DNA from: a virus
Taxonomy: Duplodnaviria > Heunggongvirae > Uroviricota > Caudoviricetes
DNA: 24,108 bases
IMG/VR virus record: IMGVR_UViG_3300039330_000027
Strand: one strand, 5' to 3'
Every line of letters begins with the position of its first letter. Position 1 is the first letter of the stretch. Below, piece after piece: positions 236-16,961 of the stretch. The position numbers were made by a program, and so were the translations under genes. The notes under the pieces were generated by a model, which was not told the DNA's origin, did not search any database, and saw nothing but the letters and a program-made list of their open reading frames with translations.

Positions 236-1045
236 TCACTTAATTATTGGATAACTCACACAAGTATGACCGTTGCTTATCGCATACATTTGGTTTCCCT
301 TAAGATTTACAAATGGAAATGTCGTATACTCATAATTTATAGAGGTCATATTAAATGTAAGGAATTTATCCTCAAGTTCTAATTTTGTAGAGTGGGCAGG
401 GTATGTTCCTTCATTTTTCATTGTGATAATAAAACCGATAGGAAAAAAATGTAAAGCACAAATAAATGCCACATGTCCTTCGTTCATAAATGCTACACTT
501 TGAGCGGATATGTGCATTCTGTGTGGGTAAAACCAGTAGTAAATATCATGAGTTTCCTCAAAACTTGAATTTTTACCCAAAACATAATCCTTTAAAGGTG
601 TATAGAAGGGGCTATCTACGGGTTCTTTTTTACAATCTTCAACTGAAGTTGCTGATAGCACGTGCCCAATCATAGCCTTAGTGAAAGATATGCTATCAAA
701 AGGTATTCTAATGAATGGATATACATTCATACCATTCATATATCGACTTAACTGTTCTTTAAAGGACTTTGTTACATTTTCAATTGCAACATCGAGCCCA
801 CCTAATACCTTATTGTTACAGTGGCTGCAAATGGTTCTGAAATAAGAGCCATTTTTAGCATTTAATGGTTTAACTGGTTCCTGAATACCAAAAAATTCGC
901 TAACTGTTTTCTGCAAAACAGGGCCTAAGGTTATGGCGCACTTTGGAGGAACATGATCTTTTGTGAGCAAGCCATATTTCCCACAAATATTGCAATAACC
1001 TTCAGTAATGCCATTGTGCTTCCATCGTTCACTAATTTTCGTCAT
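236..1045 (-). CDS. Hypothetical protein with an N-terminal HNH-like zinc-finger nuclease motif (CxxC...DHxPP...CxxC) and a C-terminal domain of about 190 aa of unknown function
   Basis: 269-aa ORF on the minus strand in a markedly AT-rich block. RBS GAGGGA lies 6 nt upstream of the ATG at 1045. Motifs CNICGKYGLLTKDHVPPKC and CSHCNNK resemble an HNH core. No recognisable phage structural role. Confidence 0.6.
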   Translation of the reverse strand: MTKISERWKHNGITEGYCNICGKYGLLTKDHVPPKCAITLGPVLQKTVSEFFGIQEPVKPLNAKNGSYFRTICSHCNNKVLGGLDVAIENVTKSFKEQLSRYMNGMNVYPFIRIPFDSISFTKAMIGHVLSATSVEDCKKEPVDSPFYTPLKDYVLGKNSSFEETHDIYYWFYPHRMHISAQSVAFMNEGHVAFICALHFFPIGFIITMKNEGTYPAHSTKLELEDKFLTFNMTSINYEYTTFPFVNLKGNQMYAISNGHTCVSYPIIK

Positions 1046-1458: not shown

Positions 1459-1612
1459 TTTTATATTGGCGAGGTAACGGGAGTTAAGTAGAATGGCTGC
1501 GGGTGCTTGAGGCTATCTGTCTCAGGCATGAACACCAAAGGCAGATAGAGAAAAGCCCCAGTTAACATTACGCGTCCTGCAAGACGCTTAACATTAATCT
1601 GAGGCTCAATCT

Positions 1613-1825
1613 ATGAACGGCAAATCTAGGTTAGCCTCTTACGTGCCGAAAGGCAAGGAGAAGCAGGCTATGAAGCAGCAAAAGGCGATGTTAATCGCCC
1701 TGATCGTCATCTGTTTAACCGTCATTGTGACGGCACTGGTAACGAGGAAAGACCTCTGCGAGGTACGAATCCGAACCGGCCAGACGGAGGTCGCTGTCTT
1801 CACAGCTTACGAACCTGAGGAGTAA
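1613..1825 (+). CDS. mok: Mok-like overlapping reading frame (N-terminally extended form of Hok, modulator of killing)
   Basis: 70-aa ORF in the same frame as hok. The extension MNGKSRLASYVPKGKEKQA has the same pattern as the remembered E. coli MokC extension (KEKRAMKQ versus KEKQAMKQ here). Confidence 0.55.
   Translation: MNGKSRLASYVPKGKEKQAMKQQKAMLIALIVICLTVIVTALVTRKDLCEVRIRTGQTEVAVFTAYEPEE
1670..1825 (+). CDS. hok: Hok/Gef family type I toxin (small membrane-depolarising peptide), 51 aa
   Basis: Translation MKQQKAMLIALIVICLTVIVTALVTRKDLCEVRIRTGQTEVAVFTAYEPEE matches the Hok/Gef family and, from memory, is essentially identical to E. coli HokD (RelF). Confidence 0.85.
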   Translation: MKQQKAMLIALIVICLTVIVTALVTRKDLCEVRIRTGQTEVAVFTAYEPEE

Positions 1826-1968: not shown

Positions 1969-2361
1969 ATGAAGAAACTTGTTTTAGTCGCAGGTGTAAT
2001 GATTGCAACAGTAATGTTGGGAGGGTGTGCAGCAAAGATCGATCCAGCGTTGAAAGCAGAAGCAATGAAGCCACTAACATGTAATGATGAAAAGCAATGT
2101 GACTTTTATTGGAAACGAGCGCAATTCTGGTTGGCTAATAATTCCTCATGGAAAATTCAAACGGCGACAGACACGCTAATTTCCACTTATAATCCCTCTC
2201 CAAATAGTCCATTCCTCGCTTATCAAGTGAGTAAAATGCCAAATGAAGATGGATCCTCAAGAATTTTCATCAAGCCTTTTTGCGATAATATGTTTGGCTG
2301 TCAACCAAACCCCTATCAGGCAGTTGTTTCCTTTAAAAACTTCGTTAAAACAGGGCAGTAG
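1969..2361 (+). CDS. Putative secreted lipoprotein of unknown function (Cys-rich mature domain)
   Basis: 130-aa ORF with an N-terminal signal peptide and lipobox (MKKLVLVAGVMIATVMLGGC, Cys at position 20). The mature part contains four more Cys. AT-rich codon usage suggests an accessory (moron) gene. Confidence 0.7.
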   Translation: MKKLVLVAGVMIATVMLGGCAAKIDPALKAEAMKPLTCNDEKQCDFYWKRAQFWLANNSSWKIQTATDTLISTYNPSPNSPFLAYQVSKMPNEDGSSRIFIKPFCDNMFGCQPNPYQAVVSFKNFVKTGQ

Positions 2362-2586: not shown

Positions 2587-2657
2587 CTGGCATTCTGGTT
2601 TACAATTCGCACGCCAGCCTGAACAACTGGCACCTGCTGCGCCAGCAGAGACAACCG

Positions 2658-2936
2658 ATGGCGCACGATACCAAATTACACAATTCTGATGATTCTGCCG
2701 TCTTTGCCAGCAGGCGCGGGCGGCGTTCCCGCACTTTCAAATCTGACTGGTTCCAGCATGACCCATGTACTGAAGAACAGGCCGAATGGCTAATTCATAA
2801 CTATCGCAGACGCGGATACGAGATTAAGAAAGCCCTCAGCCTCGATTATCGTCACTGGATAATCTATGTCAGGCTCCCTTATTCCGAACGCCCACCGCGC
2901 CCATCCCGCACATACCAGCAACGGATCTGGAGGTAA
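2658..2936 (+). CDS. Hypothetical phage protein (92 aa); positional equivalent of rem in the Qin prophage, between hok and the DUF968 gene
   Basis: ORF whose stop overlaps the RBS and start of the DUF968 gene. The start is chosen as the first ATG downstream of the terminator T-run and is uncertain. No family recognised. Confidence 0.4.
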   Translation: MAHDTKLHNSDDSAVFASRRGRRSRTFKSDWFQHDPCTEEQAEWLIHNYRRRGYEIKKALSLDYRHWIIYVRLPYSERPPRPSRTYQQRIWR

Positions 2937-2937
2937 C

Positions 2938-3993
2938 GTGCGGATATTACTTCGACCTGTTCTGGTACCGGAACTTGGGCTGGTGGTCCTTAGGCCGGGC
3001 CGTGAATCCATGCAAGTATTTCATAACCCTCGAGTGCTGGTGGAGCCTGAACCGAAAAGCATGCGCGGTCTGCCGTCCGGAGTCGTCCCTGCCGTTCGCC
3101 AGCCGCTGGCGGAGGATAAATCATTACTGCCATTTTTCAGCGATGAGCGGGTGATTCGTGCTGCTGGCGGCGCTGGGGCACTGTCTGACTGGCTGTTGCG
3201 TCATGTCAAATCCTGCCAGTGGCCTCATGGTGACTATCATCACAGTGAAATCGTCATACATCGTTACGGTACCGGCGCGATGGTGTTGTGCTGGCACTGC
3301 GACAACCAGTTGCGTGACCAGACATCCGAATCACTCGGGCAGCTTGCTCATCAAAACCTGTCAGCATGGATGATTGACGTCATACGCCATGCAATGAATG
3401 GCACGCAGGAGCGGGAATTGTCGCTGGCTGAATTATCCTGGTGGGCGGTCTGCAATCAGGTGGCGGACGCGCTTCCGGAGGCAGTATTACGTCGTTCTCT
3501 GGGGTTACGTGCGGAAAAAATCCGCTCCTTGTACCGCGAAAGCGATATCGTACCGGGAGAGCAGACCGCCACCAGCATACTGAAGCAGCGCACAAAAAAT
3601 CTTGCGCCGTTGCCTCATGCCCACCAGCAAAACCCGCCACAGGAAAAGACGGTGGTCAGCATTGCCGTTGATCCGGAGTCTCCGGTTCAGTATCTCCAGC
3701 GCCAGAAACCACAACGGGAAGAGATGCCTGTATACACGCGCTGGGTAAAAACGCAGAAATGCATGACGTGCGGTAATCAGGCAGATGATCCGCATCACAT
3801 CATTGGTCATGGCCTGGGAGGTATGGGAACAAAGGCTGATGATTTGTTTGTTATTCCGCTGTGCCGTAAATGTCATAACGAACTGCACGCCGGGGTAAAA
3901 GATTTTGAAGAAAAACACGGCAGCCAGCTGTTGTTGCTGATTCGTTTTTTAATGCACGCGAGAAATTCGGGTGTTCTGAAGTGGAAAGCATGA
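2938..3993 (+). CDS. DUF968-family phage protein (YdfU-like) with a C-terminal HNH-like motif
   Basis: GTG start at 2938 is preceded by GGAGG at 2926-2930. The C-terminus CMTCGNQADDPHHIIGHGLGG...LCRKCHNELH is characteristic of DUF968 proteins found upstream of rusA and Q in lambdoid prophages. The ORF-track start at 2866 is judged too far upstream. Confidence 0.8.
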   Translation: MRILLRPVLVPELGLVVLRPGRESMQVFHNPRVLVEPEPKSMRGLPSGVVPAVRQPLAEDKSLLPFFSDERVIRAAGGAGALSDWLLRHVKSCQWPHGDYHHSEIVIHRYGTGAMVLCWHCDNQLRDQTSESLGQLAHQNLSAWMIDVIRHAMNGTQERELSLAELSWWAVCNQVADALPEAVLRRSLGLRAEKIRSLYRESDIVPGEQTATSILKQRTKNLAPLPHAHQQNPPQEKTVVSIAVDPESPVQYLQRQKPQREEMPVYTRWVKTQKCMTCGNQADDPHHIIGHGLGGMGTKADDLFVIPLCRKCHNELHAGVKDFEEKHGSQLLLLIRFLMHARNSGVLKWKA

Positions 3994-4371
3994 ATGACTG
4001 AACGCATAGAATTTGTTTTGCCTTACCCGCCGACGGTGAATACCTACTGGCGACGTCATGGCAATACGTATTTCATCTCGGAGGCCGGAAAGCGTTATCG
4101 CCGTGATGTGGCGCTAATTGTTCGCCAGCAGCGGCTGAAATTAAACCTGTCCGGAAGGCTGGCGATAAAGATTATTGCAGAGCCACCGGATAAGCGCCGT
4201 CGTGACCTGGACAATATCCTGAAGGCACCACTGGATGCGCTGACGCATGCCGGACTACTTATAGACGACGAGCAGTTTGATGAAATCAATATTGTGCGCG
4301 GTCAGCTCGTTCCTGGTGGGCGACTGGGCGTGAAGATTTGCGAAATCAGAGGTGATGGTAATGGGGCGTGA
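3994..4371 (+). CDS. rusA: Crossover junction endodeoxyribonuclease RusA (Holliday junction resolvase)
   Basis: 125-aa translation has RusA hallmarks (LPYPPTVNTYWRR..., DKRRRDLDNILKAPLDALTHAGLLIDDEQ) and a length close to E. coli RusA. The start overlaps the DUF968 stop (TGAATG). Confidence 0.9.
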   Translation: MTERIEFVLPYPPTVNTYWRRHGNTYFISEAGKRYRRDVALIVRQQRLKLNLSGRLAIKIIAEPPDKRRRDLDNILKAPLDALTHAGLLIDDEQFDEINIVRGQLVPGGRLGVKICEIRGDGNGA

Positions 4372-4711
4372 TATGTATGAGGTTTTAGATCGCTGGGGGG
4401 CATGGGCTGCAGCAGAAAATAGCGGTGTCGATTGGCAACCGATAGCAGCGGGCTTCAAGGGGCTTTTGCCACATGGCAAAAAGTCACGTCTCCAGTGTGA
4501 TGATGATGAAGGCATCATGATAGACGGTTGTGTGGCTCGGTTGCGAAAGTATAAACCAGAGGAATATGAGCTGCTCATAGCTCACTTTGTTATTGGTGTT
4601 TCTCTACGCTCAATCGCGAAGAAACGCAGGTGCTCAGATGGAACTATAAGAAAGGAGCTGCAAACTGCATTAGGCTTTATTGATGGATGTATATGCTTGA
4701 TTCTATCATAA
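4361..4711 (+). CDS. quuD: Late-gene antitermination protein Q (phage 82 / QuuD-type)
   Basis: Translation MGRDMYEVLDRWGAWAAAENSGVDWQPIAAGFKGLLP... aligns with the remembered E. coli DLP12 QuuD. The start is taken at ATG 4361 (RBS CAGAGG upstream); the ORF track begins at GTG 4352. Confidence 0.85.
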   Translation: MGRDMYEVLDRWGAWAAAENSGVDWQPIAAGFKGLLPHGKKSRLQCDDDEGIMIDGCVARLRKYKPEEYELLIAHFVIGVSLRSIAKKRRCSDGTIRKELQTALGFIDGCICLILS

Positions 4712-4968
4712 GTTATGACTGTTACTACTCGTTTGCTTGAGCTTTCGATTCGGCGTCAGATAAAGCATCAATACGAATATTTATGTTTTTTAATAGCTTA
4801 TTGTCTAGATCGATAAGACATTGGTTGTAGTGCGCAATTTGGTCTGGTGTTAGGTTAGGGTTGGCCAGGCAGTTCGTGATGAATTCAGTCAAAAAGGAAA
4901 TTCAATCCCGCAGTGATAAGGGTGGTAAACCATGCCTGCATTGCCAGGTAGGATTTAGTGTTCGCCAT

Positions 4969-5214
4969 TCACCTTCCTGCACTTGCTTCGTTGCGAGTTT
5001 TGAGTTCGCGTAGCAGTAGCGCCAACTCTTCTGCGTCATTTTCGTTTCTAACGCTGACTTTCCTTTTAGCGGTTCTGCCTTCAGGATCGGTGTAGGTTAG
5101 TTCAATATACGCATTCGGCTTTACCCAAACCAAGAACCTAAGCACAGCATATCTGACCGTCGCTGCGACAGCCATGAATACAGTGATGTAAAGCATAATG
5201 CTTAGGATTGACAT
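4969..5214 (-). CDS. Small membrane protein (81 aa; N-terminal transmembrane helix, charged C-terminal tail), second gene of the accessory two-gene operon
   Basis: ATG lies 4 nt after the stop of the upstream gene, with AGGAAA as RBS (translational coupling). Hydrophobic N-terminus MSILSIMLYITVFMAVAATV. AT-rich. Confidence 0.6.
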   Translation of the reverse strand: MSILSIMLYITVFMAVAATVRYAVLRFLVWVKPNAYIELTYTDPEGRTAKRKVSVRNENDAEELALLLRELKTRNEASAGR

Positions 5215-5217
5215 GAT

Positions 5218-6096
5218 TTAAAGTAGTTTCCTATCTGCCGCCGCTCTGTGGCGTATAACCTTAGTAATACTATAGCGTGGTTTAGACAGCGCGCCATTTG
5301 TTTCTTTTGTTGTTTCTGTCAGTTCTACAACAAAAAGATCACCCTTACAGAATGCTGCTTGGTTGTGTTCAACCCGTTCAAGAAAAGCCTCATCTTTCAT
5401 AGATGCGCTAACTTCTTCGCCATTTGGCAGGATGATATCCCAGCTTTTGCCTTGCTTGAATCGAACATTAGCAAAATGTACATTAGCTTGGCGTGTCGTT
5501 ACGTGCGTTTTCTCGACAAAGGTGGATTTTGCAGTTTTAAAACTTACTGCTTCAGCTTGCGTCACCCTGACTACCTTATGCTTCTGCTGTGAAACTGAGA
5601 ACGTGGATGGTTTTTCAGTCTGCAGGGGTTTATAGATTAATTTATCCAGTTCTTTTCGGATGATTGGACTGGTTATTAATTTTTGAATGTCGTTACTGCA
5701 TTTAACCTTCTCACCATCCACTTCGATTTCTGCTGTATCTTTTTGTTCATCGACGACAATGGAGCTGATTTTACGCCCTTTGAGCCATTCGATTATCCCG
5801 AGTACGCCACCTGCGGCAACTCCACCACCTGCAACGAGGCCAAGGGCGTTAATAGTTTTTATGCTCCCCATCACAGCAACAAGCAAAGTAAATGAACCTT
5901 CTTTTGTTGCCTTGATGTTGACTTTCGGCTCTGCTGTTTCGCCATTAATTATTTTTTCGGCGTGTTCAATCAGGGCACTAAGAGAGGTTAAGGCTTCGCC
6001 TAATGTTTTCGCGTCGATCTGATTATCTGCGTATGCCTCTCCACCGTAGGCAATTTCGATTTCTGTTATTGGCATGTTTTCGAGTTGCTGCGTCAT
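5218..6096 (-). CDS. Hypothetical protein (about 292 aa) with a central glycine-zipper hydrophobic segment; first gene of the accessory two-gene operon
   Basis: Long minus-strand ORF antisense to the phage late operon. The start is placed at ATG 6096 (AGGA RBS 8 nt upstream) because the GTG at 6129 would sit within about 6 nt of the predicted transcription start. Segment GLVAGGGVAAGGVLGIIEWL looks membrane-inserting. No family recognised. Confidence 0.65.
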   Translation of the reverse strand: MTQQLENMPITEIEIAYGGEAYADNQIDAKTLGEALTSLSALIEHAEKIINGETAEPKVNIKATKEGSFTLLVAVMGSIKTINALGLVAGGGVAAGGVLGIIEWLKGRKISSIVVDEQKDTAEIEVDGEKVKCSNDIQKLITSPIIRKELDKLIYKPLQTEKPSTFSVSQQKHKVVRVTQAEAVSFKTAKSTFVEKTHVTTRQANVHFANVRFKQGKSWDIILPNGEEVSASMKDEAFLERVEHNQAAFCKGDLFVVELTETTKETNGALSKPRYSITKVIRHRAAADRKLL

Positions 6097-6139
6097 CAAA
6101 AGCATCCTTTGCGCAAGAGAAATAGCCACAGGATACAGA

Positions 6140-6175
6140 TAATTATGAAAAAATCACTAACGCGTACGCAAAAAC
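6140..6175 (-). promoter_or_regulatory. Putative sigma-70 promoter of the minus-strand accessory operon
   Basis: On the minus strand, -35 TTGCGT (6171..6166), an 18-nt spacer, and -10 CATAAT (6147..6142). Predicted transcription start is near 6135. Confidence 0.3.
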
Positions 6176-6217
6176 TATCTTAATCTGTTAAGAGTGGTCG
6201 CTTCGCCACACAACTTA

Positions 6218-6240
6218 AACCCGCATCAAGCGGTTTTTTT
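6218..6240 (+). terminator. Possible intrinsic terminator (short GC hairpin plus T7 run)
   Basis: Sequence aacccgc-atcaa-gcgg-ttttttt on the + strand, upstream of the tRNA promoter. The stem is only about 4 bp. Confidence 0.35.
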
Positions 6241-6322
6241 GTGTCACTTATCTCGGATAGACATGGTGAATGCGCTGGTGGAGGAGATAAGGGTGATTTT
6301 TAACCAGGTGATTTTTGAATGC

Positions 6323-6351
6323 TTGCAACATTGATTTCGTAACGTTATTAT
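6323..6351 (+). promoter_or_regulatory. Strong sigma-70-like promoter immediately upstream of the tRNA array (candidate tRNA promoter or late promoter pR')
   Basis: -35 TTGCAA (6323-6328), a 17-nt spacer, and -10 TATTAT (6346-6351). Predicted transcription start is a few nt before the first tRNA at 6361. Confidence 0.5.
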
Positions 6352-6360
6352 CCTGCGCCC

Positions 6361-6436
6361 GGCCCTTTAGCTCAGTGGTGAGAGCGAGCGACTCATAATC
6401 GCCAGGTCGCTGGTTCAAATCCAGCAAGGGCCACCA
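6361..6436 (+). tRNA. ileZ: tRNA with CAT anticodon, most similar to tRNA-Ile2 (lysidine type, ileX/ileZ-like); tRNA-Met not excluded
   Basis: Manual cloverleaf: acceptor ggccctt/aagggcc, D-arm tagctcagtggtgagagc, anticodon loop cTCATAAt, T-arm gctggTTCAAATccagc, encoded CCA. Resembles the remembered E. coli ileX. Confidence 0.8.
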
Positions 6437-6437
6437 A

Positions 6438-6514
6438 CCGCCACTAGCTCATCAGGAAAGAGCGTCAACCCTTTAAGTTGAGTGTGCGAGGTTCGAGTCC
6501 CCGGTGGCGGTCCA
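6438..6514 (+). tRNA. tRNA-like gene with atypical anticodon loop CCTTTAA (probably Lys-UUU-like but with C at position 33); assignment uncertain
   Basis: Folds into a cloverleaf: acceptor ccgccac/gtggcgg, D-stem gctc/gagc, anticodon stem tcaac/gttga, T-arm cgagg-TTCGAGT-ccccg (one mismatch), discriminator T, encoded CCA. The anticodon loop lacks the usual U33. Confidence 0.5.
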
Positions 6515-6516
6515 GT

Positions 6517-6592
<76 letters not shown>

Positions 6593-6595
6593 TAT

Positions 6596-6670
<75 letters not shown>

Positions 6671-6676
6671 GTCAGA

Positions 6677-6722
6677 GTCTTTCAGTCTGCGATGATGGGA
6701 AATCCCGGAGTGACTGAAAGAC
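6677..6722 (+). repeat. 11-bp perfect inverted repeat (gtctttcagtc / gactgaaagac) with a 24-nt loop, immediately 3' of the tRNA array
   Basis: Direct reading of the sequence. Followed by gttt; could be a tRNA 3'-processing or termination structure. Confidence 0.5.
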
Positions 6723-6730
6723 GTTTAAGT

Positions 6731-6801
6731 TATGAATGATCGCCTTTTTTTGCAAAATTGCTGTGCAGAAATACTAACCTTCGGGCAGGCGATCATTCAT
6801 A
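6731..6801 (+). repeat. 14-bp perfect inverted repeat (tatgaatgatcgcc / ggcgatcattcata) separated by 43 nt
   Basis: Direct reading. The left arm is followed by a T7 run. Function unknown (RNA structure, protein-binding site or insertion scar). Confidence 0.5.
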
Positions 6802-6878
6802 AGCACTCTGCTTTTATTCCGATCAACTGTGGGTGGTTTGTTGGATAGAGTGCTTTCCTTTCTGTATATATCGTTTCG

Positions 6879-6899
6879 CCCGCTTTTGCGGTTTTTTCT
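6879..6899 (+). terminator. Intrinsic terminator-like hairpin upstream of the holin gene (candidate tR')
   Basis: Sequence ccgc-tttt-gcgg followed by tttttt. Confidence 0.5.
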
Positions 6900-6962
6900 T
6901 TTCAAATCCCTTTCATTTCTCAGTGTAAAACTACGCCATCCGTTATTTGCGGAGGTGAGGCT

Positions 6963-7178
6963 ATGAAATCCATGGACAAAATTTCAACGGGCATTGCCTA
7001 CGGCACCTCCGCAGGCAGTGCTGGCTACTGGTTTTTACAGTGGCTTGATCAGGTCAGTCCGTCACAGTGGGCTGCGATTGGTGTACTTGGGAGTCTGGTT
7101 CTGGGCTTCCTGACTTATCTGACAAATCTGTACTTCAAAATCAGAGAAGACAAGCGTAAGGCTGCACGGGGAGAGTAA
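6963..7178 (+). CDS. S: Class II holin / pinholin of the phage 21 S type, with dual start motif (antiholin from Met1, holin from Met4)
   Basis: 71-aa translation [53 protein letters not shown]... matches the remembered S21 pinholin. RBS GGAGGTGAGG upstream. Confidence 0.9.
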
Positions 7179-7182
7179 TTCA

Positions 7183-7533
7183 ATGACTCAAAACTATGAA
7201 CTGATTGTGAAAGGGATCCGCAATTTTGAGAATAAAGTTACGGTAACTTTAGCGTTACGGGACAAAAAACGCTTTGACGGTGAAATTTTTGACCTGGACA
7301 TCTCGCTGGACCGTGTTGAAGGTGCCGCGCTGGAGTTTTATGAGGCAGCAGCCAGAATGAGCATCAGACAGGTCTTCCTGGATGTTGCTGCCGGGTTATG
7401 TGAAGGGGATGAGCAGTCGCCGGAAAAGCGCCCCGTAATTTTAGAGGCGCAGAATGTATGGATAACCTACAAAGGAAAGCTACCGGGAAGAATTACTGGT
7501 TCTCTGAAGACTCCTCCGGAATCACAACCTTAA
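7183..7533 (+). CDS. YdfR-like protein (DUF1327), conserved ORF between holin and endolysin as in the Qin prophage
   Basis: 116-aa ORF with RBS GGAGAG. Family assigned from position (essQ-ydfR-rrrQ arrangement) and remembered similarity; function unknown. Confidence 0.5.
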   Translation: MTQNYELIVKGIRNFENKVTVTLALRDKKRFDGEIFDLDISLDRVEGAALEFYEAAARMSIRQVFLDVAAGLCEGDEQSPEKRPVILEAQNVWITYKGKLPGRITGSLKTPPESQP

Positions 7534-7596
7534 GTCACTGACCGGAACAGATAAACCTGTCCGTGGGCAGAAACCGATAAATCCTGATAAATATCC

Positions 7597-8130
7597 ATGA
7601 ACGCAAAAATCAGATACGGCCTGTCGGCTGCCGTTCTGGCACTGATTGCCGTCGGTGCGCCCGCGCCTGATATTCTCGACCAGTTTCTGGATGAAAAAGA
7701 AGGTAACCACACAACGGCATACCGCGATGGGTCCGGCATCTGGACCATCTGTCGGGGTGCCACGATGGTGGATGGAAAACCCGTTTTTCCCGGTATGAAA
7801 CTGTCGAAGGAAAAATGCGACCAGGTCAACGCCATTGAGCGTGATAAGGCGCTGGCATGGGTGGAGCGCAATATTAAAGTACCACTGACCGAACCACAAA
7901 AAGCGGGTATAGCGTCATTCTGTCCCTATAACATTGGCCCCGGTAAGTGTTTCCCGTCGACGTTTTATAAGCGGCTGAATGCCGGTGATCGTAAGGGCGC
8001 ATGCGAGGCGATTCGCTGGTGGATAAAAGATGGTGGGCGCGATTGCCGCATACGTTCAAATAACTGCTATGGACAGGTTATTCGTCGTGACCAGGAAAGC
8101 GCATTAGCCTGTTGGGGGATAGAGCAGTGA
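7597..8130 (+). CDS. R: SAR endolysin (phage lysozyme, glycoside hydrolase family 24, phage 21 R-like)
   Basis: N-terminal signal-anchor-release segment [15 protein letters not shown], then lysozyme motifs ([20 protein letters not shown]..., C-terminal CWGIEQ). Confidence 0.85.
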
Positions 8131-8588
8131 GCAGAGTCGCCGCGATTATTTATGCTTTGGTTATCTGCATCATCGTCTGCCTGTCGTGGGCGGTCAATCA
8201 TTACCGTGATAACGCCATCGCCTACAAAGAACAGCGTGATAAAAAAGTCAGTGAGCTGAAGCAGGCGATCGCCACCATCGCTGACATGCAGCAGCGTCAG
8301 CGTGATGTTGCTGCACTCGATGCAAAGTACTCGAGAGAATTAGCCAATGCGAAAGCTGAAAATGAAACTCTGCGCGCTGATGTTGCCGCTGGTCGTCGTC
8401 GGTTGCACATCAAAGCAGTCTGTCAGTCAGTGCGTGAAGCCACCACCGCCTCCGGCGTGGATAATGCAACCAGCCCCCGACTGGCAGACACCGCTGAACG
8501 GGATTATTTCACCCTCAGAGAGAGGCTGATCACTATGCAAAAACAACTGGAAGGAACCCAGAAGTATATTAATGAGCAGTGCAGATAG
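8127..8588 (+). CDS. Rz: i-spanin Rz
   Basis: Translation matches remembered RzpD-type spanins ([29 protein letters not shown]...[25 protein letters not shown]...). GTG start at 8127 overlaps the endolysin stop. Confidence 0.85.
8347..8529 (+). CDS. Rz1: o-spanin Rz1 (proline-rich outer-membrane lipoprotein) embedded in the +1 frame of Rz
   Basis: 60-aa [27 protein letters not shown]...PPPPPAW... with lipobox VVGC, lying entirely inside Rz. Confidence 0.8.
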
Positions 8589-8591
8589 AGC

Positions 8592-8609
8592 TGCCCATAT
8601 CGATGGGCA
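8592..8609. terminator. Possible bidirectional hairpin between convergent Rz and bor
   Basis: 7-bp stem tgcccat-atcg-atgggca with no adjacent T-run. Confidence 0.3.
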
Positions 8610-8619
8610 ACTCATGCAA

Positions 8620-8913
8620 TTATTGTGAGCAATACACACGCGCTTCCAGTGGAGTATAAATGCCTAAAGTAATAAAACCGAGAAATCCATTTACGAATGT
8701 TTGCTGGGTTTCTGTTTTAACAACATTTTCTGCGCCGCCACAAATTTTGGCTGCATCAACAGTTTTCTCCTGTCCAATTCCCGAAACGAAGAAATGATGG
8801 GTGATGGTTTCCTTTGGTGTTACTGCTGTCGGTTTGTTTCCAACAGTAAACGTCTGTTGAGCACATCCTGTAATAAGCATTGCCAGAGCGGCAGAAAACA
8901 ACATTTTTTTCAT
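8620..8913 (-). CDS. bor: Bor lipoprotein (serum-resistance / lysogenic-conversion protein)
   Basis: 97-aa translation MKKMLFSAALAMLITGCAQQTFTVGNKPTAVTPKETITHHFFVSGIGQEKTVDAAKICGGAENVVKTETQQTFVNGFLGFITLGIYTPLEARVYCSQ matches remembered lambda Bor. RBS AGGA lies 7 nt upstream of ATG 8913. Confidence 0.9.
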   Translation of the reverse strand: MKKMLFSAALAMLITGCAQQTFTVGNKPTAVTPKETITHHFFVSGIGQEKTVDAAKICGGAENVVKTETQQTFVNGFLGFITLGIYTPLEARVYCSQ

Positions 8914-9093
8914 CTTATTATCCTGCATTGTTAAAAATGGCAGAATCCTATGTGACAACAATTAAACGATAGTTAAATGGATTGATGAAAATTAAAACTA
9001 TATAGGTGGATGCTCAGCCTATTGGAGGTAGTCAGGATTTGAATGTCAGTCTGTTGTCGGCATTCTGGCAATGCAATTTGGATAAAGCGGGGA

Positions 9094-9216
9094 TTAAAAA
9101 GATAGAGGCGAGCCGGTCAGGTAGAAATGAATCAGGCTCAAAGTGAAGCGGAAAAGGTCTGTGGCACAAGCTGATGCAGCCATAATTACAGCCTGATGAT
9201 TTGTGGAATGAAACAT
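9094..9216 (-). CDS. Putative small protein (40 aa) upstream of bor on the minus strand
   Basis: Perfect Shine-Dalgarno AAGGAGG 6 nt upstream of ATG 9216 on the minus strand. Translation MFHSTNHQAVIMAASACATDLFRFTLSLIHFYLTGSPLSF. No homology recognised. Confidence 0.3.
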   Translation of the reverse strand: MFHSTNHQAVIMAASACATDLFRFTLSLIHFYLTGSPLSF

Positions 9217-9296
9217 GTTGAACCTCCTTAATTGATGTTATTCGAGTGATGAAGGCATTCTGTCCTTCTATAGTGTCCAGTAAATCAAACAGGAAA

Positions 9297-9318
9297 CTTG
9301 TCCAACGTGTTGGACAAG
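9297..9318. repeat. Perfect 10-bp inverted repeat (cttgtccaac gt gttggacaag), candidate protein-binding site
   Basis: Direct reading. Located in the bor-to-HNH/terminase intergenic region where the packaging site is expected. Confidence 0.5.
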
Positions 9319-9438
9319 CCTCTCCATTAGTGAGTTGTATTGATCACAACTCTACAAAGAATTCATTACTGGGTAGATGAAAATAGTTTCACTATGAATG
9401 GAGGAGGCTATGTCGGTGGCTTCTTCATTGGAGTACAT

Positions 9439-9789
9439 ATGCCCCCACGAATCCCACGCGCCTGCCGTAAGCGTGGATGTGCAGGTACAACCACAGACAG
9501 TTCTGGTTACTGCGATAAACATCGTGGCGAAGGATGGGTACAGCATCAACGCGGACTGAGCCGCCACCAGCGTGGCTATGGCTCGAAATGGGATGCCATA
9601 CGTGCGCGCATACTGAAGCGTGATAATCATCTGTGTCAGAACTGCCTGCGCAATGGGAGAGCCGTTGAAGCCAGAACTGTGGACCACATCATTCCGAAAG
9701 CTCATGGTGGCACGGATGCAGACAGTAACCTGCAGAGTCTGTGCTGGCCCTGTCATAAAGCAAAAACAGCGCGCGAACGCATCAATTGA
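9439..9789 (+). CDS. Phage-associated HNH endonuclease (packaging-associated, HK97-like)
   Basis: Motifs CRKRGCAG...C, VDHIIPKAHGG and LQSLCWPCH. Sits immediately upstream of the small terminase gene. Start chosen at ATG 9439 (GGAG upstream); the ORF track begins at 9340. Confidence 0.8.
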   Translation: MPPRIPRACRKRGCAGTTTDSSGYCDKHRGEGWVQHQRGLSRHQRGYGSKWDAIRARILKRDNHLCQNCLRNGRAVEARTVDHIIPKAHGGTDADSNLQSLCWPCHKAKTARERIN

Positions 9790-9936
9790 TAACAGTTCCC
9801 ATCTGTAGGGGAGGGGCAGGTCAAATCTCTGCAACCCTGGCTGCTCAGTACCGCCGCCTGACCTTTCCTCGCATCGCCGCAGGTTCGAAAACTTTTTTTT
9901 GGAATGTGATTAAATGATTGATAGGTAAAACCGATT

Positions 9937-10419
9937 ATGTCTGGACCCCCGAAAATCCCGCCACGCCTGCATTTGATACGAGGCAACCCCTCAAAGCGGC
10001 CAGTTAAAGACCTCAAAAAAACCGCTAAAAAGGATGAAAAAGGTCTCCCTAAAATTCCGCAACATTTAGGGGCGCAGGGGAAGTACTGGTTCAGGCGAAT
10101 GGCGGAAGAGCTGAATGCGGAAGGGATCATTTCTCAGCTCGATGCACGTGCGCTCGAGTTACTGGTGGAAGCCTACACCGAATACCGGCATCACTGCGAA
10201 ATACTCGATGTTGAGGGTTATACCTACCGCACGAAAACGCAGAATGGCGATGTGCTGATCAAGGCACACCCGGCTGCTGCGATGAAGGCTGATGCCTGGA
10301 AGCGGATTCGGGCGATGCTTGCAGAGTTTGGTATGTCACCGGCAAGCCGGGCGAAAGTAAATACCGCCGGACCGGATGATGTTGATCCGCTGGCAGAGCT
10401 TTTAAAAGCGAGAGACTGA
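9937..10419 (+). CDS. Terminase small subunit (P27-family-like)
   Basis: 160-aa basic protein immediately upstream of, and overlapping, the large terminase gene. Family assigned from position and composition. Confidence 0.7.
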   Translation: MSGPPKIPPRLHLIRGNPSKRPVKDLKKTAKKDEKGLPKIPQHLGAQGKYWFRRMAEELNAEGIISQLDARALELLVEAYTEYRHHCEILDVEGYTYRTKTQNGDVLIKAHPAAAMKADAWKRIRAMLAEFGMSPASRAKVNTAGPDDVDPLAELLKARD

Positions 10420-12176
10420 TGGCAAAAGTGGCTGACGGGATCCGCTACGCCGAACGTGTTGTTGCAGGAGAAATTGTTGCTGGCGAATTTGTCCGTCTGG
10501 CCTGCCAGCGTTTTCTTGATGATCTGAAGTACGGCGAAGAGCGGGGGATTTATTTCAGTGAACCTCGTGCACAGCACATCCTTAATTTCTACAAATTTGT
10601 ACCCCATGTGAAAGGGGCGCTGGCAGGTCAGCCCATTGAGTTGATGGACTGGCATGTGTTTATCCTCATTAATATTTTTGGTTTTGTCATTCCGCTGGTG
10701 AATGAAGAAACCGGGGAAGTTGTCATGCGCAGCGATGGCAGTGGACGCCCGGTGATGGTGCGCCGGTTCCGGACAGCATACAACGAAGTTGCCCGTAAAA
10801 ACGCAAAATCAACCCTGTCATCGGGTATCGGTCTGTATATGACGGGGGCAGATAGTGAAGGCGGAGCTGAGGTGTATTCAGCCGCAACCACGCTTGACCA
10901 GGCCAGAATCGTGTTTGAAGACGCCAAAAATATGGTCAGAAAAGCCCGGTCGACACTCGGGCGGTTGTTTGATTTCAACAAGCTGGCGATTTACCAGGAG
11001 CAGAGCGCATCAAAATTTGAACCGCTTTCCTCGGATGCAAACAACCTGGACGGTCTGAACATCCACTGCGCCATTATTGATGAGCTGCATGCACATAAAA
11101 CCCGCGACGTGTGGGACGTTCTGGAAACGGCAACCGGTGCCCGTCTGCAGTCCCTGTTATTTGGTATCACCACGGCTGGCTTTAACAAGGAAGGGATTTG
11201 TTACGAGCAGCGTGATTACGCCATCAAGGTATTGCGAGGCTATAACAGCGACGTGGAGGGCGCTGTAAAAGACGACTCTTACTTTGCGATCATTTACACG
11301 CTTGATGAGGGAGATGATCCGTTTGATGAAACGGTCTGGCAGAAAGCGAATCCTGGCCTGGGCATCTGTAAACGCTGGGATGATCTGCGTCGTCTGGCGA
11401 AAAAAGCGAAGGAGCAGGTCTCTGCGCGGGTGAATTTTTTTACCAAACACATGAATGTGTGGGTCACTGCCGAATCTGCCTGGATGGATATGATTAAGTG
11501 GGAGAAGTGCGAATACATTGCTCCACAACATGAGCTGAAAACATATCCCATGTGGGTCGGCGTCGACCTTGCTCATAAGATTGATATCTGTGCGGCGGCA
11601 AAACTCTGGCGAACCGATAACGGACATGTTCATGCTGATTTTAAATTCTGGCTTCCGGAAGGACGGCTGGAACGATGCTCGCGGCAGCAGGCAGAACTTT
11701 ACCGGAAGTGGGCGGAGATGGATAAGCTCATCCTGACGGATGGTGATGTTATCGATCATGCTCAGATAAAAAGTGACTTACTGGAATGGATTGGCGGTGA
11801 AAACCTCAGGGAACTGGGATTTGACCCGTGGAGCGCAATGCAGTTCAGCCTGGCACTGGCTGAAGAAGGGATACCGCTGGTGGAGGTTCCGCAGACGGTC
11901 CGCAATCTGTCAGAGGCCATGAAGGAAACGGAATCACTGGTTTATGCCGGGCGTTTCCATCACAGCAATCATCCGGTCATGAACTGGATGATGTCTAACG
12001 TTACTGTAAAACCGGACAAAAACGACAACATCTTCCCGAATAAATCCACGCCGGAAGCCAAAATCGACGGCCCTGTTGCGCTTTTTACAGCCATGAGCCG
12101 CTTTCTGGTAAATGGAGGGGGCGTGAATGACTTTCTGTCCACGCTTGATCCTGATGAGGACCTGTTAATTCTGTGA
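10419..12176 (+). CDS. Terminase large subunit (ATPase and nuclease)
   Basis: 585-aa ORF at the head of the morphogenesis module. Start overlaps the small terminase stop (TGATG). Confidence 0.85.
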   Translation: MAKVADGIRYAERVVAGEIVAGEFVRLACQRFLDDLKYGEERGIYFSEPRAQHILNFYKFVPHVKGALAGQPIELMDWHVFILINIFGFVIPLVNEETGEVVMRSDGSGRPVMVRRFRTAYNEVARKNAKSTLSSGIGLYMTGADSEGGAEVYSAATTLDQARIVFEDAKNMVRKARSTLGRLFDFNKLAIYQEQSASKFEPLSSDANNLDGLNIHCAIIDELHAHKTRDVWDVLETATGARLQSLLFGITTAGFNKEGICYEQRDYAIKVLRGYNSDVEGAVKDDSYFAIIYTLDEGDDPFDETVWQKANPGLGICKRWDDLRRLAKKAKEQVSARVNFFTKHMNVWVTAESAWMDMIKWEKCEYIAPQHELKTYPMWVGVDLAHKIDICAAAKLWRTDNGHVHADFKFWLPEGRLERCSRQQAELYRKWAEMDKLILTDGDVIDHAQIKSDLLEWIGGENLRELGFDPWSAMQFSLALAEEGIPLVEVPQTVRNLSEAMKETESLVYAGRFHHSNHPVMNWMMSNVTVKPDKNDNIFPNKSTPEAKIDGPVALFTAMSRFLVNGGGVNDFLSTLDPDEDLLIL

Positions 12177-12334
12177 AACAGCTTATTACTGATATGACCG
12201 GGCTGATCGGTTTCGGTTTGCTCACTGCTGGCGTTTATCTGTATGCAGGTCTGCCAGCGTCTCTGATGCTGTCGGGCTGTTTGTTGCTGCTTTATGCACT
12301 GGTGGTGTCCATGAGGAGAAAACATGCTTCTTGA
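12173..12334 (+). CDS. Putative small membrane protein (about 53 aa) between terminase and portal
   Basis: ORF overlapping the terminase stop (GTG 12173; alternative ATG 12194) and the portal start. Hydrophobic sequence LIGFGLLTAGVYLYAGLPASLMLSGCLLLLYALVV. Not in the ORF track because it is under 60 aa. Confidence 0.35.
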   Translation: MKQLITDMTGLIGFGLLTAGVYLYAGLPASLMLSGCLLLLYALVVSMRRKHAS

Positions 12335-13550
12335 TGCTCTGTTTCGCAGTGAGCCTCTGGAAAATCCCTCGGTTCCGGTAACCGGAGAGGCCGCTGAGAC
12401 GGATAATATTTTTGCCCGGGATGTGTATGTCAGTCCGGAAACATCCATGAAGCTGGCTGCTGTCTATGCCTGTATTTATGTTATTTCATCCAGTGTGGCT
12501 CAGATGCCCCTGCATGTGATGCGAAAAACGAATGAGCATGTTCAGCCGGCACGCGATCATCCGTTGTTCTGGCTCGTTCATGATGAACCTAATGCCTGGC
12601 AGACCAGCTATAAGTGGCGGGAACTGAAGCAGCGTCATGTGCTGGGGTGGGGCAATGGTTATACGTGGGTAAAACGTAATCGTCGTGGAGAGGTTACCAG
12701 CCTTGAATGCTGTATGCCATGGGAAACCACGTTACTTAACACCGGTGGGCGTCATACTTACGGGGTGTATAACGAAGAGGGTGCATTTGCGGTAAGTCCG
12801 GACGACATGATCCATATCAGGGCGCTGGGAAACAATCAGAAAATGGGACTGAGCCCGATCATGCAGCATGCTGAAACCATTGGTATGGGAATGAGTGGCC
12901 AGCAGTATACCAGCGCCTTTTTTAACGGTAATGCCCGTCCTGCCGGTATTATTTCTGTGAAAAATGAACTGAACGAACAAAGCTGGGGCAGGCTTAAAAA
13001 TATGTGGCAGCGGGCGGTGACAGCGCTTCGCAGCCAGGAAAATAAAACCATGTTGCTGCCTGCGCAACTGGATTACCGCGCTCTGACAGTTTCTCCGGTG
13101 GATGCTCAGATCATTGATATGACCAAGCTGAACCGGTCGATGATTGCCGGGATTTTTAATGTCCCGGCGCACATGATTAATGACCTGGAAAAAGCCACAT
13201 TTTCGAATATTACGCAGCAGGCGATTCAGTTTGTTCGCTACACGATGATGCCCTGGGTTGCGAACTGGGAGCAGGAGCTTAACCGTCGCCTGTTTACCCG
13301 TACAGAACGGGCTGCCGGGTATTACGTTCGTTTCAACCTCACGGGGTTGCTCCGTGGGACCCCACAGGAGCGTGCGCAGTTCTATCACTTTGCCATTACA
13401 GATGGCTGGATGAGTCGGAATGAAGCCAGGGCATTTGAGGATATGAACCCGGTTGACGGTCTGGATGAAATGCTGGTCAGCGTAAATGCAGCAAATCCGT
13501 TGAATAACTTTAAAGATACGAAAGGCAAAGAGGAAAAGAACGATGAATGA
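12324..13550 (+). CDS. Portal protein (HK97-like family)
   Basis: 408-aa ORF following terminase. RBS GAGGAG upstream. Confidence 0.85.
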   Translation: MLLDALFRSEPLENPSVPVTGEAAETDNIFARDVYVSPETSMKLAAVYACIYVISSSVAQMPLHVMRKTNEHVQPARDHPLFWLVHDEPNAWQTSYKWRELKQRHVLGWGNGYTWVKRNRRGEVTSLECCMPWETTLLNTGGRHTYGVYNEEGAFAVSPDDMIHIRALGNNQKMGLSPIMQHAETIGMGMSGQQYTSAFFNGNARPAGIISVKNELNEQSWGRLKNMWQRAVTALRSQENKTMLLPAQLDYRALTVSPVDAQIIDMTKLNRSMIAGIFNVPAHMINDLEKATFSNITQQAIQFVRYTMMPWVANWEQELNRRLFTRTERAAGYYVRFNLTGLLRGTPQERAQFYHFAITDGWMSRNEARAFEDMNPVDGLDEMLVSVNAANPLNNFKDTKGKEEKNDE

Positions 13551-14142
13551 CCGTGAAACGCGCTGTTACAGCGGGGAGGTGCGGGCGGAACAATATGATA
13601 ATGCCCCGACCCACATTCTGGGGTATGGCTCGGTATTTAACAGTCGTTCAGAACCTCTGTGGGGATTTCGTGAAATCATCAAGCCGGGGGCTTTTGATGA
13701 TGTACTGAATGATGATGTACGTGGCTTGTTTAATCATGATCCTAATTTCATTCTCGGACGAAGTTCTGCCGGCACGTTGTCATTGTCGGTGGATGAACGC
13801 GGTTTACGTTATGACATTGTTGCACCGGATACTCCGACTATTTGTGACCTGGTGCTGTCTCCAATGTTGCGTGGTGACATTAATCAGTCCTCGTTCGCGT
13901 TTCGTGTCGCCCGTGACGGAGAGAGCTGGTATGAAGACGACGAGGGGATTGTTATCCGGGAAATCACGCGCATTTCTCGTCTGTATGACGTCAGCCCGGT
14001 GACATATCCGGCCTATCAGGACGCAGACTCTGGTGTCCGCTCAATGAAAGCCTGGCAGGAAGCGCGGGCGAGTGGTGCGCTGAAGAAAGCTGTTAACGAA
14101 CGAATGGCGCGTGAGCGTCTTTTGACCCTTCTTAATGCATAA
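13543..14142 (+). CDS. Prohead maturation protease (HK97 family, peptidase U35-like)
   Basis: 199-aa ORF between portal and capsid genes; start overlaps the portal stop. Confidence 0.8.
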   Translation: MNDRETRCYSGEVRAEQYDNAPTHILGYGSVFNSRSEPLWGFREIIKPGAFDDVLNDDVRGLFNHDPNFILGRSSAGTLSLSVDERGLRYDIVAPDTPTICDLVLSPMLRGDINQSSFAFRVARDGESWYEDDEGIVIREITRISRLYDVSPVTYPAYQDADSGVRSMKAWQEARASGALKKAVNERMARERLLTLLNA

Positions 14143-14156
14143 GGATACTACTGACG

Positions 14157-15374
14157 ATGAAACTTCATGAGATGAAGCAAAAACGAAACACCATTGCAAA
14201 GGATATGCGTGCACTGCATGAAAAAATTGGTGATAACGCATGGACTGATGAGCAACGGGCAGAGTGGAACAGGGCGAAAGCTGAGCTGGATGCGCTGGAT
14301 GAGCAAATCGCCCGTGAAGAAGAGTTGCGCCGTCAGGATCAGGCATATGTGGATGAGTCCGGGCCGGAAGAGCGCCAGAATAATGAGGCGGAGAACGGGA
14401 AAAAGGCGGTGGAAGAGAAGCGCGCTGCGGCATTTAACCGTTTTCTGCGTGCCGGATTTGCAGAACTGAATGCTGAAGAGCGTAATCTGATGCGTGAACT
14501 GCGGGCTCAGAGTGTAACAACGGATTCTCAGGGCGGATATACGGTGCCCACGCAGATGCGTAACAAAATCATTGACACCATGAAGGCTTATGGCGGGATT
14601 GCCAGTGTGGCGCAACTTCTGACCACATCAACCGGGCAGGATATCACCTGGTCAACGTCTGATGGCACGACTGAAGAGGGCGAACTGCTGGCGGAAAATA
14701 CAGCCGCAACGGAACAGGATGTGACGTTCGGGACCGCTATTCTGGGGGCTAAAAAGCTGTCATCAAAAATAATTCGTGTGTCCAATGAGCTGCTCCAGGA
14801 CAGTGGGGTGGATATTGAATCTTATCTGGCAAACCGTATTGCCCAGCGTATTGGTCGTGGAGAGGCAAAATATCTGGTTCAGGGGACCGGAACGGGATCA
14901 CCGTTACAGCCAAAAGGGCTGGCAGCGTCGGTGACGGGAACCATCCAGACTGCAGCCTCTGCCGCTTTCACCTGGAAAGAAATGAATGCCCTGAAACATG
15001 CCATTGATCCGGCATATCGTGGTGGGCCGAAATACCGCTGGGCATTCAATGATGCCACATTGCAGACTATTGAAGAGATGGAGGATGGGCAGAAACGCCC
15101 GTTATGGCTGCCGGATATTGCAGGCGGTACGCCGGCTACTGTGCTGGGGATCCCTTATGTTATTGATCAGGCTATTGACGGGATTGGTACCGGAAAAAAA
15201 TTCATTTTCCTGGGGGATTTCAACCGCTTTATCATTCGCCGCGTTACTTATATGGAACTGAAACGTCTGGTTGAGCGTTATGCTGAGTTTGATCAGGTGG
15301 CATTTCTGGCTTTCCATCGTTTTGACTGTGTGCTGGAAGATGTGGCAGCCATCAAGGCGCTCACTGGCAAATAA
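14157..15374 (+). CDS. Major capsid protein (HK97 fold) with N-terminal coiled-coil delta/scaffolding domain
   Basis: 405-aa ORF. The N-terminal 100 aa are highly charged and helical (EEELRRQDQAYVDE...), as expected for a delta domain. Follows the protease. Confidence 0.85.
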   Translation: MKLHEMKQKRNTIAKDMRALHEKIGDNAWTDEQRAEWNRAKAELDALDEQIAREEELRRQDQAYVDESGPEERQNNEAENGKKAVEEKRAAAFNRFLRAGFAELNAEERNLMRELRAQSVTTDSQGGYTVPTQMRNKIIDTMKAYGGIASVAQLLTTSTGQDITWSTSDGTTEEGELLAENTAATEQDVTFGTAILGAKKLSSKIIRVSNELLQDSGVDIESYLANRIAQRIGRGEAKYLVQGTGTGSPLQPKGLAASVTGTIQTAASAAFTWKEMNALKHAIDPAYRGGPKYRWAFNDATLQTIEEMEDGQKRPLWLPDIAGGTPATVLGIPYVIDQAIDGIGTGKKFIFLGDFNRFIIRRVTYMELKRLVERYAEFDQVAFLAFHRFDCVLEDVAAIKALTGK

Positions 15375-15395
15375 CCACTCGTTGTTCAGTTACAG

Positions 15396-15417
15396 ACCGC
15401 GCCGACGCGGTTTTTTT
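15396..15417 (+). terminator. Intrinsic terminator-like hairpin after the major capsid gene
   Basis: Sequence accgcg-ccga-cgcggt followed by ttttttt. Confidence 0.55.
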
Positions 15418-15450
15418 ATGCCCGCACAGTGTTGCGGGCAGGAGTTTCTG

Positions 15451-15768
15451 ATGGCAGCAATAGTGGAAAAACTCAGGGCGCAGTGCCGTATTGATACAGA
15501 TGATGCAACTGATGATGAGTTACTGATGCTGTATTTCCGGGCTGCCTGCCGCAAGGCAGAAAATTTTATCAACCGTAAGCTTTATGAGGAGACGGTGCCG
15601 GAAGGTGATCCTGAAGGGGTGCTTATAGCTGATGATGTTTTGCTGGCGCTCATGTTGCTGGTCGGGCACTGGTACGAAAACCGGGAAAATTCCTCAGATG
15701 TCAGCAAGGCACCAGTCCCGTTTGGTTTTTCTTCTCTGCTGGAGCCTTATCGTTTTATTCCTTTGTAG
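15451..15768 (+). CDS. Head-tail connector protein (gp6 / lambda W-like role)
   Basis: 105-aa ORF with RBS CAGGAG 7 nt upstream of ATG 15451. The ORF-track start at 15271 overlaps the capsid gene and terminator and is rejected. Confidence 0.65.
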   Translation: MAAIVEKLRAQCRIDTDDATDDELLMLYFRAACRKAENFINRKLYEETVPEGDPEGVLIADDVLLALMLLVGHWYENRENSSDVSKAPVPFGFSSLLEPYRFIPL

Positions 15769-15776
15769 GAGGAGAC

Positions 15777-16902: not shown

Positions 16903-16923
16903 GGTCGTTAATGATTTTACCCA

Positions 16924-16944: not shown

Positions 16945-16961
16945 ATTTTCAGGAGACGAGT

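Follow-up and report, generated by a model that had tools for sequence, protein, structure and literature searches.

A mobile three-gene cassette beside the antiterminator gene Q encodes a catalogued anti-phage candidate and two small membrane-type proteins

One example of a membrane-acting prophage system is RexA/RexB of phage lambda, where a cytoplasmic sensor of about 280 aa and a membrane protein, RexB, which has four membrane helices, are co-transcribed with cI and collapse the membrane potential on infection. In other cases entry of the phage genome is blocked by small membrane proteins encoded by prophages, for instance P22 SieA, T4 Imm and HK97 gp15. A third point of comparison is EACC1 (PF19953), a pore-forming defence effector activated by a protease. 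Its published description gives a single conserved TM helix, in the middle of which small residues form a patch, with short alpha+beta extensions (PMC7159879), and it has been reported to form pores after a caspase-like cleavage that removes an N-terminal inhibitory fragment (bioRxiv 10.1101/2025.11.14.688446).

The cassette described here, which consists of a large protein, A, and two small partners, B and C, resembles RexA/RexB in architecture only, as a prophage-borne protein of about 290 aa with small membrane partners, and differs from it in having two such partners where Rex has one. On one contig the cassette lies directly 3' of a gene for a CI-like repressor (HTH and S24), 63 bp after it and on the same strand, which is a further likeness to the Rex arrangement; among the PDB sequence or fold matches of A there was no Rex-like entry. 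The likeness to EACC1 lies in a hydrophobic helix whose centre carries a glycine patch and which has alpha/beta flanks, where a weak HMM match is found, while the likeness to DUF7946 (PF25678; uncharacterised) is limited to distant relatives of A and to their N-terminal region of about 180 aa. There, 52 of 141 distant relatives match DUF7946 at E<=0.05 (best E 2e-8), and when ten A members were checked singly four matched, at 16.6-24.7 bits, below the Pfam threshold of 27; window A itself gave no DUF7946 match in the Pfam scan.

The window, by which we mean the whole stretch of 24,108 nucleotides of viral DNA that was analysed (IMG/VR record IMGVR_UViG_3300039330_000027), carries the cassette as a block of minus-strand ORFs between the stop codon of Q (4711) and an array of four tRNA genes (6361-6670). 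The features of this region are as follows:

4352..4711, plus strand: antiterminator Q, 119 aa, Phage_antitermQ (PF06530, E 4e-45)
4725..4968, minus strand: gene C, a pseudogene in the window; its intact form has 128 aa and corresponds to PHROG 26468
4969..5214, minus strand: gene B, 81 aa, PHROG 27630, with an N-terminal transmembrane helix and a short soluble tail
5218..6096, minus strand: gene A, 292 aa from its ATG; an upstream alternative GTG start at 6129 would give 303 aa
6097..6216, no strand assigned: region 5' of the cassette, with a chance-level minus-strand promoter match; probably the divergent plus-strand late promoter/qut
6217..6244, plus strand: terminator-like hairpin and T run, a candidate tR' of the late operon

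The genes are tightly packed, with a gap of 3 nt between the TAA of A and the ATG of B, and with the ATG of C (4968) directly after the TGA of B. GC content is 0.42-0.44 over 5000-6000, as compared with 0.49-0.57 over 2800-4400 and 0.51 over 6200-6800, and the strongly negative AT skew of the block fits minus-strand coding. A first-pass annotation, made from the letters of the window, had described two minus-strand ORFs of 292 and 81 aa that were AT-rich relative to their flanks, a glycine-rich hydrophobic segment in the large protein, and a small partner that crosses the membrane once. All of this is borne out, as the ORFs are found (GC 42-44% against 50-57%), A carries the glycine-rich hydrophobic stretch GLVAGGGVAAGGVLGIIEWL, and B has its N-terminal transmembrane helix. 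The same annotation had called the block a two-gene operon, which is right as far as A and B are concerned, and incomplete in that the unit is whole only with a third gene, C: the unit is a three-gene operon, A-B-C, and it is horizontally mobile.

Protein A is not without known relatives. It matches the PADLOC model PDLC05015 of PDC-S42 (PADLOC-DB v2.0.0) with an E value of 3.3e-53 (179 bits; residues 22-299 on profile positions 4-294 of 302), with weaker matches to PDLC05016 and PDLC05017, and it matches the NCBIfam model NF053583 (LAPAL_fam) at 225.3 bits, where the curated cut-off is 60 bits (E 1e-66; residues 25-295 on profile positions 2-291 of 292), as well as PHROG 3243 (E 2.7e-94). A is thus a full-length, high-scoring member of all three, and window A is 100% identical to the RefSeq protein WP_000193722.1. 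By these profile matches, the family of A is one already catalogued as an anti-phage candidate, and the module would not count as a new discovery. The earlier statement that the large protein resembles no known family does not hold, given the PADLOC, NCBIfam and PHROG models; of the proposal of a candidate undescribed defence module, the candidate defence part stands, with the match to PDC-S42, and the word undescribed falls, with three models and about 1,000 contigs. A literature search retrieved no paper naming PDC-S42, the LAPAL motif, DUF7946 or WP_000193722.

The PDC entries are computational candidates obtained through "guilt-by-embedding", and most have not been validated (PMC12988326). 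When put to the test, some PDCs have been inactive (PMC12409345), and others have been active (bioRxiv 10.64898/2026.09.05.749240). PDC-S42 is listed as a single-gene system ("S" class), whereas here B and C are conserved after A, which does not agree with a single-gene definition. The unit for cloning is three genes, as opposed to the one gene in PADLOC and the two in the window. The product name of NF053583 is "LAPAL motif-containing putative phage structural protein"; the literal LAPAL string is present in 27 of 141 relatives of A, and it is absent from window A. This naming of the A family by the NCBI curators as a putative structural protein was counted against the defence reading.

The family is a large one. 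With a profile built from 21 homologues of A, 2,918 cluster representatives were found at E<=1e-3 and 1,480 at E<=1e-10, and in nearly all of the best 150 of the 2,918 the length is 280-310 aa. Named members come from the Enterobacterales, Orbaceae, Shewanella, Vibrio, Halomonas, Wohlfahrtiimonas, Pseudomonas and Burkholderia, and all are labelled hypothetical. Proteins identical to A and to C are present on about 1,000 contigs each, and proteins identical to B on 897. In the phage collection the sole match to the cassette is a distant protein of a Vibrio phage element (26% identity), and a profile of 141 sequences widened the k-mer-based homologue search by almost nothing.

Wherever the downstream sequence reaches far enough, a gene of about 70-87 aa and a further one of about 104-139 aa come after A, in that order; the one exception is a contig on which an IS1595 transposase directly adjoins A. 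The A-B-C order is kept down to about 25-30% identity. The first-pass annotation had named the lack of a conserved two-gene arrangement in other genomes as a finding that would speak against it; the A-B pair is indeed present in them, and C is the third member. At the position of B the RefSeq annotation has a gap of 249 bp; B has been deposited elsewhere, and it is conserved 3' of A in distant relatives. The A-B-C order was seen in the following contexts:

Orbaceae and Gilliamella: Mu-like prophages
Buttiauxella: a lambdoid prophage
Serratia fonticola: adjoining a DUF927-type primase gene and an AlpA-like gene
A second E. coli lineage: between hokD and DUF968-RusA-Q, co-directional with the early genes (nin region)
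An Enterobacter hormaechei island: with a serine recombinase gene and a VapE-like gene
Mu-like phage contigs: with an A 29% identical to window A
A MobA plasmid contig of about 6 kb: the cassette is the main cargo
Metagenomes: two contigs
Pseudomonas megaplasmids: replicons of 370-580 kb

The carriers of the family thus include lambdoid and Mu-like prophages, mobile islands and Pseudomonas resistance megaplasmids. As the order of the cassette is kept across prophages, islands and plasmids, the cassette is mobile accessory cargo and not a structural gene. In the contexts examined, A is placed in accessory or early regions only and never in a head/tail module. Homology of the large protein to a phage structural family, which the first-pass annotation had named as a finding that would speak against it, exists in the product name of NF053583, but the genomic context of A contradicts that label; the fit between label and contexts is poor, and the "putative phage structural protein" annotation looks misleading. 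With regard to the neighbours of the cassette, a PADLOC search of 84 neighbouring proteins from 12 contexts returned orphan methyltransferases, one exonuclease and one other candidate, and 10 further neighbouring proteins gave nothing convincing; embedding of the cassette in a defence island was not seen among these 84 neighbours in 12 contexts.

The structural model of A (pLDDT 76.5) contains an N-terminal beta-alpha-beta-beta unit, beta hairpins and helices, and a beta-rich C-terminal half, with residues 79-105 poorly modelled as two short helices around a glycine-rich loop. The predicted layout is an N-terminal alpha/beta region, a conserved hydrophobic segment rich in Gly, Ala, Ser and Thr (78-106), and then beta-rich domains, among them barrels of OB/SH3-like type. 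The hydrophobic segment is found at the same position in 141 distant relatives, where the best 19-residue hydropathy averages 1.6, and as a transmembrane helix it is borderline. Residues conserved across the family are Y17, L32, G67, S68, G86, R147, P157, W219, D235, F238 and V280, and no catalytic motif was seen among them. Conserved residues without a catalytic site lead us to read A as non-enzymatic, and as a membrane-associating sensor or scaffold. Comparison with the PDB by sequence and by fold gave no solved structure resembling A beyond generic small beta-barrels.

Of the two small proteins, B has across the family a transmembrane helix at its N-terminus and, after it, a short polar tail. 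In C the first helix is weakly hydrophobic, the second, at about residues 40-60, is strongly so, and the tail is charged; its AlphaFold model (pLDDT 72) contains four helices, at 3-28, 30-57, 62-82 and 89-127, from which C is predicted to be a two-helix membrane hairpin with a helical tail. It is in this predicted topology alone, with a pair of membrane helices and a helical tail, that C is like a holin. Pfam and PADLOC scans of B and C returned no family, and none of 11 C proteins matched a holin Pfam family at E<=0.01.

In the window, the third gene is broken. Of 5,426 complete E. coli genomes, 37 contain DNA of the A-B-C cassette, with an identity of 99.7-100%, and in all 37 of these carriers the corresponding stretch exceeds that of the window by about 143 bp. 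One E. coli carrier of an intact A-B-C is strain EcPNK006 (NZ_CP071436, 2666338-2667852). Their intact C is a protein of 128 aa (WP_000024152.1), encoded directly after the stop of B. When the window was aligned with one such E. coli locus (L001), window positions 2611-4885 corresponded to 6900-9174 of the locus, and window positions 4877-15360 to 9309-19792. This places a 143-bp deletion inside window C, with a junction at about 4877-4886, where only imperfect repeats are found, and with the reading frame shifted. What is left of C is a stub of 27 aa (4885-4968), MANTKSYLAMQAWFTTLITAGLNFLFD, ended by a stop codon, and a C-terminal remnant (4725-4892), which is out of frame and matches positions 76-128 of PHROG 26468. 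As C is destroyed by a frameshifting deletion, this copy may be non-functional, and it is probably inactive or altered through the loss of C; it amounts to a natural knock-out of the third gene.

The best explanation for the cassette is that of membrane-acting anti-phage accessory cargo with its site of action at the inner membrane, and in the first place on an abortive infection model, with exclusion of incoming DNA as the other form that an anti-phage role could take; we hold the abortive infection version tentatively, at somewhat short of an even chance. The evidence in favour is circumstantial and consists of the PADLOC candidacy of A, the cargo-slot locations and the architecture of the three proteins. 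Under this explanation, the resident element, whether a prophage, a satellite-like island or a plasmid, would express A-B-C and thereby shield its host from other phages. A would be mostly cytoplasmic, with its glycine-rich segment probably dipping into the inner membrane or anchored to it, and its C-terminal small beta-barrels could bind a ligand. A might then sense or gate, and a lesion in the membrane might be made or governed by B and C in the manner of abortive infection, a mechanism that is purely inferred. A more specific version is that of a new and mechanistically distinct three-component membrane defence, in which A would be a non-enzymatic sensor with a latent glycine-patch segment that inserts into the membrane, and would act together with B and C to collapse the membrane on infection; such a system would be unrelated in sequence and fold to the characterised ones and widespread on Gammaproteobacteria phages, satellite-like islands and plasmids. 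This version is possible and rather doubtful. Should the family have a role in phage defence, its 2,918 cluster representatives would make it a common membrane-acting system.

Another explanation is superinfection exclusion, where A-B-C would form an inner-membrane complex that blocks the entry of the genome of an incoming phage and does not kill the cell. B and C are small proteins of inner-membrane type and A has a membrane-associating segment, a repressor-like gene lies 5' of the cassette in some prophages, and the loss of C is tolerated in the window, which fits a non-toxic system. However, the cassette is also present on plasmids and small islands, where the logic of self-exclusion is less obvious, PADLOC and Pfam show no similarity to known exclusion proteins, and a cytoplasmic beta-barrel protein of 290 aa is atypical of known entry blockers. 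We consider exclusion unlikely.

It has also to be considered whether the cassette serves the element itself, either as an addiction module made up of a membrane toxin and its regulators, or as a modulator of lysis timing or of the lysogeny decision. In Mu-like prophages, genes for a holin and an SLT endolysin lie directly 3' of the cassette on the same strand; the gross topology of C, in which a charged tail comes after two membrane helices, is like that of a class II holin; and the cassette is the main cargo of the MobA plasmid contig of about 6 kb. Such a role is nevertheless improbable, as the cassette occurs in islands, in plasmids and in the nin region without lysis genes, most related prophages lack it (37 of the 5,426 E. 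coli genomes carry this version), and B and C match no holin or toxin family. In addition, A and B are kept after the loss of C, which speaks against C as an essential antitoxin.

A further proposal is that A is a latent pore-former like EACC1, where a glycine-patch helix would be released on activation and would permeabilise the membrane. A weak Pfam match covers the glycine-rich segment and the strands that follow it (E 0.016-0.018; profile positions 42-102 of 107), but its score of 15.5-15.6 bits stands against a Pfam gathering threshold of 23.6, only 3 of 141 relatives of A match at E<=0.05, no protease gene lies beside the cassette in the contexts examined, and EACC1 has only about a third of the length of A. 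This proposal is very improbable, and homology of A to EACC1 was rejected on the sub-threshold score, the 3 of 141 relatives and the lack of a partner protease; as an analogy for a possible insertion of A into the membrane, EACC1 is attractive. That A is a structural protein of the virion, for which the NF053583 product name and the many copies in prophages may be cited, is hardly credible, as A lies outside head/tail modules, has its place in early or accessory regions (in this window as an antisense gene) and also on plasmids and non-phage islands, travels with two small membrane-protein genes and resembles no solved virion protein.

With regard to the anti-phage cargo reading, the position of the cassette beside Q deserves attention. 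A prophage of E. coli F95 that lacks the cassette is homologous to the window up to position 4328 and again from 6217 onwards, and window positions 4329-6216, which hold the 119-aa Q and C-B-A, stand in place of a 229-aa Q of another family and 65 bp in F95, with nothing else in the cargo slot beside that different Q. On this comparison, the Q gene at 4352..4711 arrived with the cassette. In a prophage of strain 11PC, a Q that is 84% identical in DNA is followed by other antisense cargo (247 and 87 aa), then by an element of 69 bp that shares 85% identity with window 6156-6224, with a hairpin and a T run after it. The suggestion that the block is foreign cargo and that the position next to Q is a hotspot for such cargo is supported here, as the 11PC prophage has the same type of Q and holds different antisense cargo in that place.

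The hairpin at 6217-6244 (-11.4 kcal/mol, z = -3.7) coincides with the point where homology to the cassette-free prophages resumes. From the conservation seen in these comparisons, the late promoter/qut and tR' are likelier on the right-hand side of the cargo slot, which would place the slot between Q and its promoter. With the late promoter beyond the cassette, the late transcript that depends on Q would leave the cassette uncrossed, and only early-operon read-through via Q would be antisense to it. Silencing of the cassette by convergent late transcription, which the first-pass annotation had envisaged, is thus unlikely, as the late promoter region is probably to the right of the cassette.

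That annotation had also given the cassette a promoter of its own on the minus strand at 6140-6175, which was not picked up by the consensus scan. The best match, TTGCGT-18-CATAAT (about 6141-6170), agrees at 8 of 12 positions and is equalled or bettered by 58% of shuffles, and upstream of A no sigma-70 match better than shuffles was found in 11 contexts. A further possible late promoter is a promoter-like match at 4680-4709 (9 of 12 positions), which overlaps the end of Q but is not conserved in the 11PC prophage. In Mu-like contigs the cassette lies inside a rightward operon that starts with an HTH gene. Lambda rexAB is expressed in the lysogen, and by analogy the repressor-adjacent and HTH-operon placements hint that the cassette may likewise be expressed in the lysogen.

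The slot between Q and a conserved 69-bp element to the right of the cassette (window 6156-6224) acts as a cargo hotspot. Relative to an E. coli F95 prophage that lacks the cassette (L028), the window carries a mosaic swap, where a 119-aa Q (PF06530) together with the antisense cassette, occupying window 4329-6216, stands in for a 229-aa Q of another family (L028 1730-2510). Immediately to the left of the tRNAs, at approximately window 6193-6303, a 36-aa 'antiterminator' fragment has been annotated by RefSeq, and this is possibly a leftover of an earlier Q. In the prophage of E. coli strain 11PC (L029), whose Q is near-identical, the slot between Q and the 69-bp element holds a different cargo, for which PADLOC gave no convincing match:

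L029 2867-3870, antisense: two genes of 247 aa and 87 aa, both annotated as hypothetical

Within the cassette itself, gene B (~80 aa) and its transmembrane helix are conserved among relatives as distant as ~25-30% identity in gene A, and in several records gene B is left without annotation by both RefSeq and the gene caller:

L001 (E. coli prophage locus aligned to the window) 9401-9649: unannotated gene B
L009, L010 and L012 (further compared loci) 8871-9114: unannotated gene B

Gene C (minus strand) is broken in the window, where 143 bp are missing at 4877-4886 in comparison with 37 of 37 cassette-bearing complete E. coli genomes, shifting the reading frame. The repeats flanking the deletion junction are merely imperfect (TGATGAATT vs TGAGGAAGC), and the deletion may be either genuine, a natural knock-out, or an artefact of assembly. 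The Enterobacter hormaechei island that carries A-B-C has, in some of its copies, an orphan colicin/pyocin immunity-like gene ~500 bp downstream of the three genes:

L014 9995-10168 and L016 9998-10168 (island copies): colicin/pyocin immunity-like gene (PF01320)

To the right of the cassette, the first tRNA of the array (window 6361-6436) is called Met by ARAGORN (anticodon CAT) and tRNA-Ile by RefSeq, the latter being expected if the CAT anticodon is lysidine-modified. The lysis genes that begin further along point to a phage-21-type late region, even though the Q upstream of it is a PF06530 member:

Window 6963-7533: start of the lysis region, phage-21-type holin (PF04971), then a DUF1327/YdfR-family gene

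At the left end, the most AT-rich section of the window (GC 0.33-0.39) contains an ORF of 269 aa with multiple CxxC pairs (window 236-1045, minus strand). This ORF, possibly one more orphan cargo gene, has no match in Pfam and is missing from prophage L001, which is otherwise similar. Two further features follow:

Window 1501-1825: toxin-antitoxin locus of the hok/sok type, with a sok RNA matched in Rfam at 110 bits
Window 1969-2361, plus strand: ORF of 130 aa whose signal resembles that of a lipoprotein (...LGGCAAK)

The sok RNA overlaps a 70-aa ORF containing a hokD-like peptide. The 130-aa ORF has no Pfam family, and at the corresponding position in L002, another compared locus, there is a 130-aa gene annotated as hypothetical.
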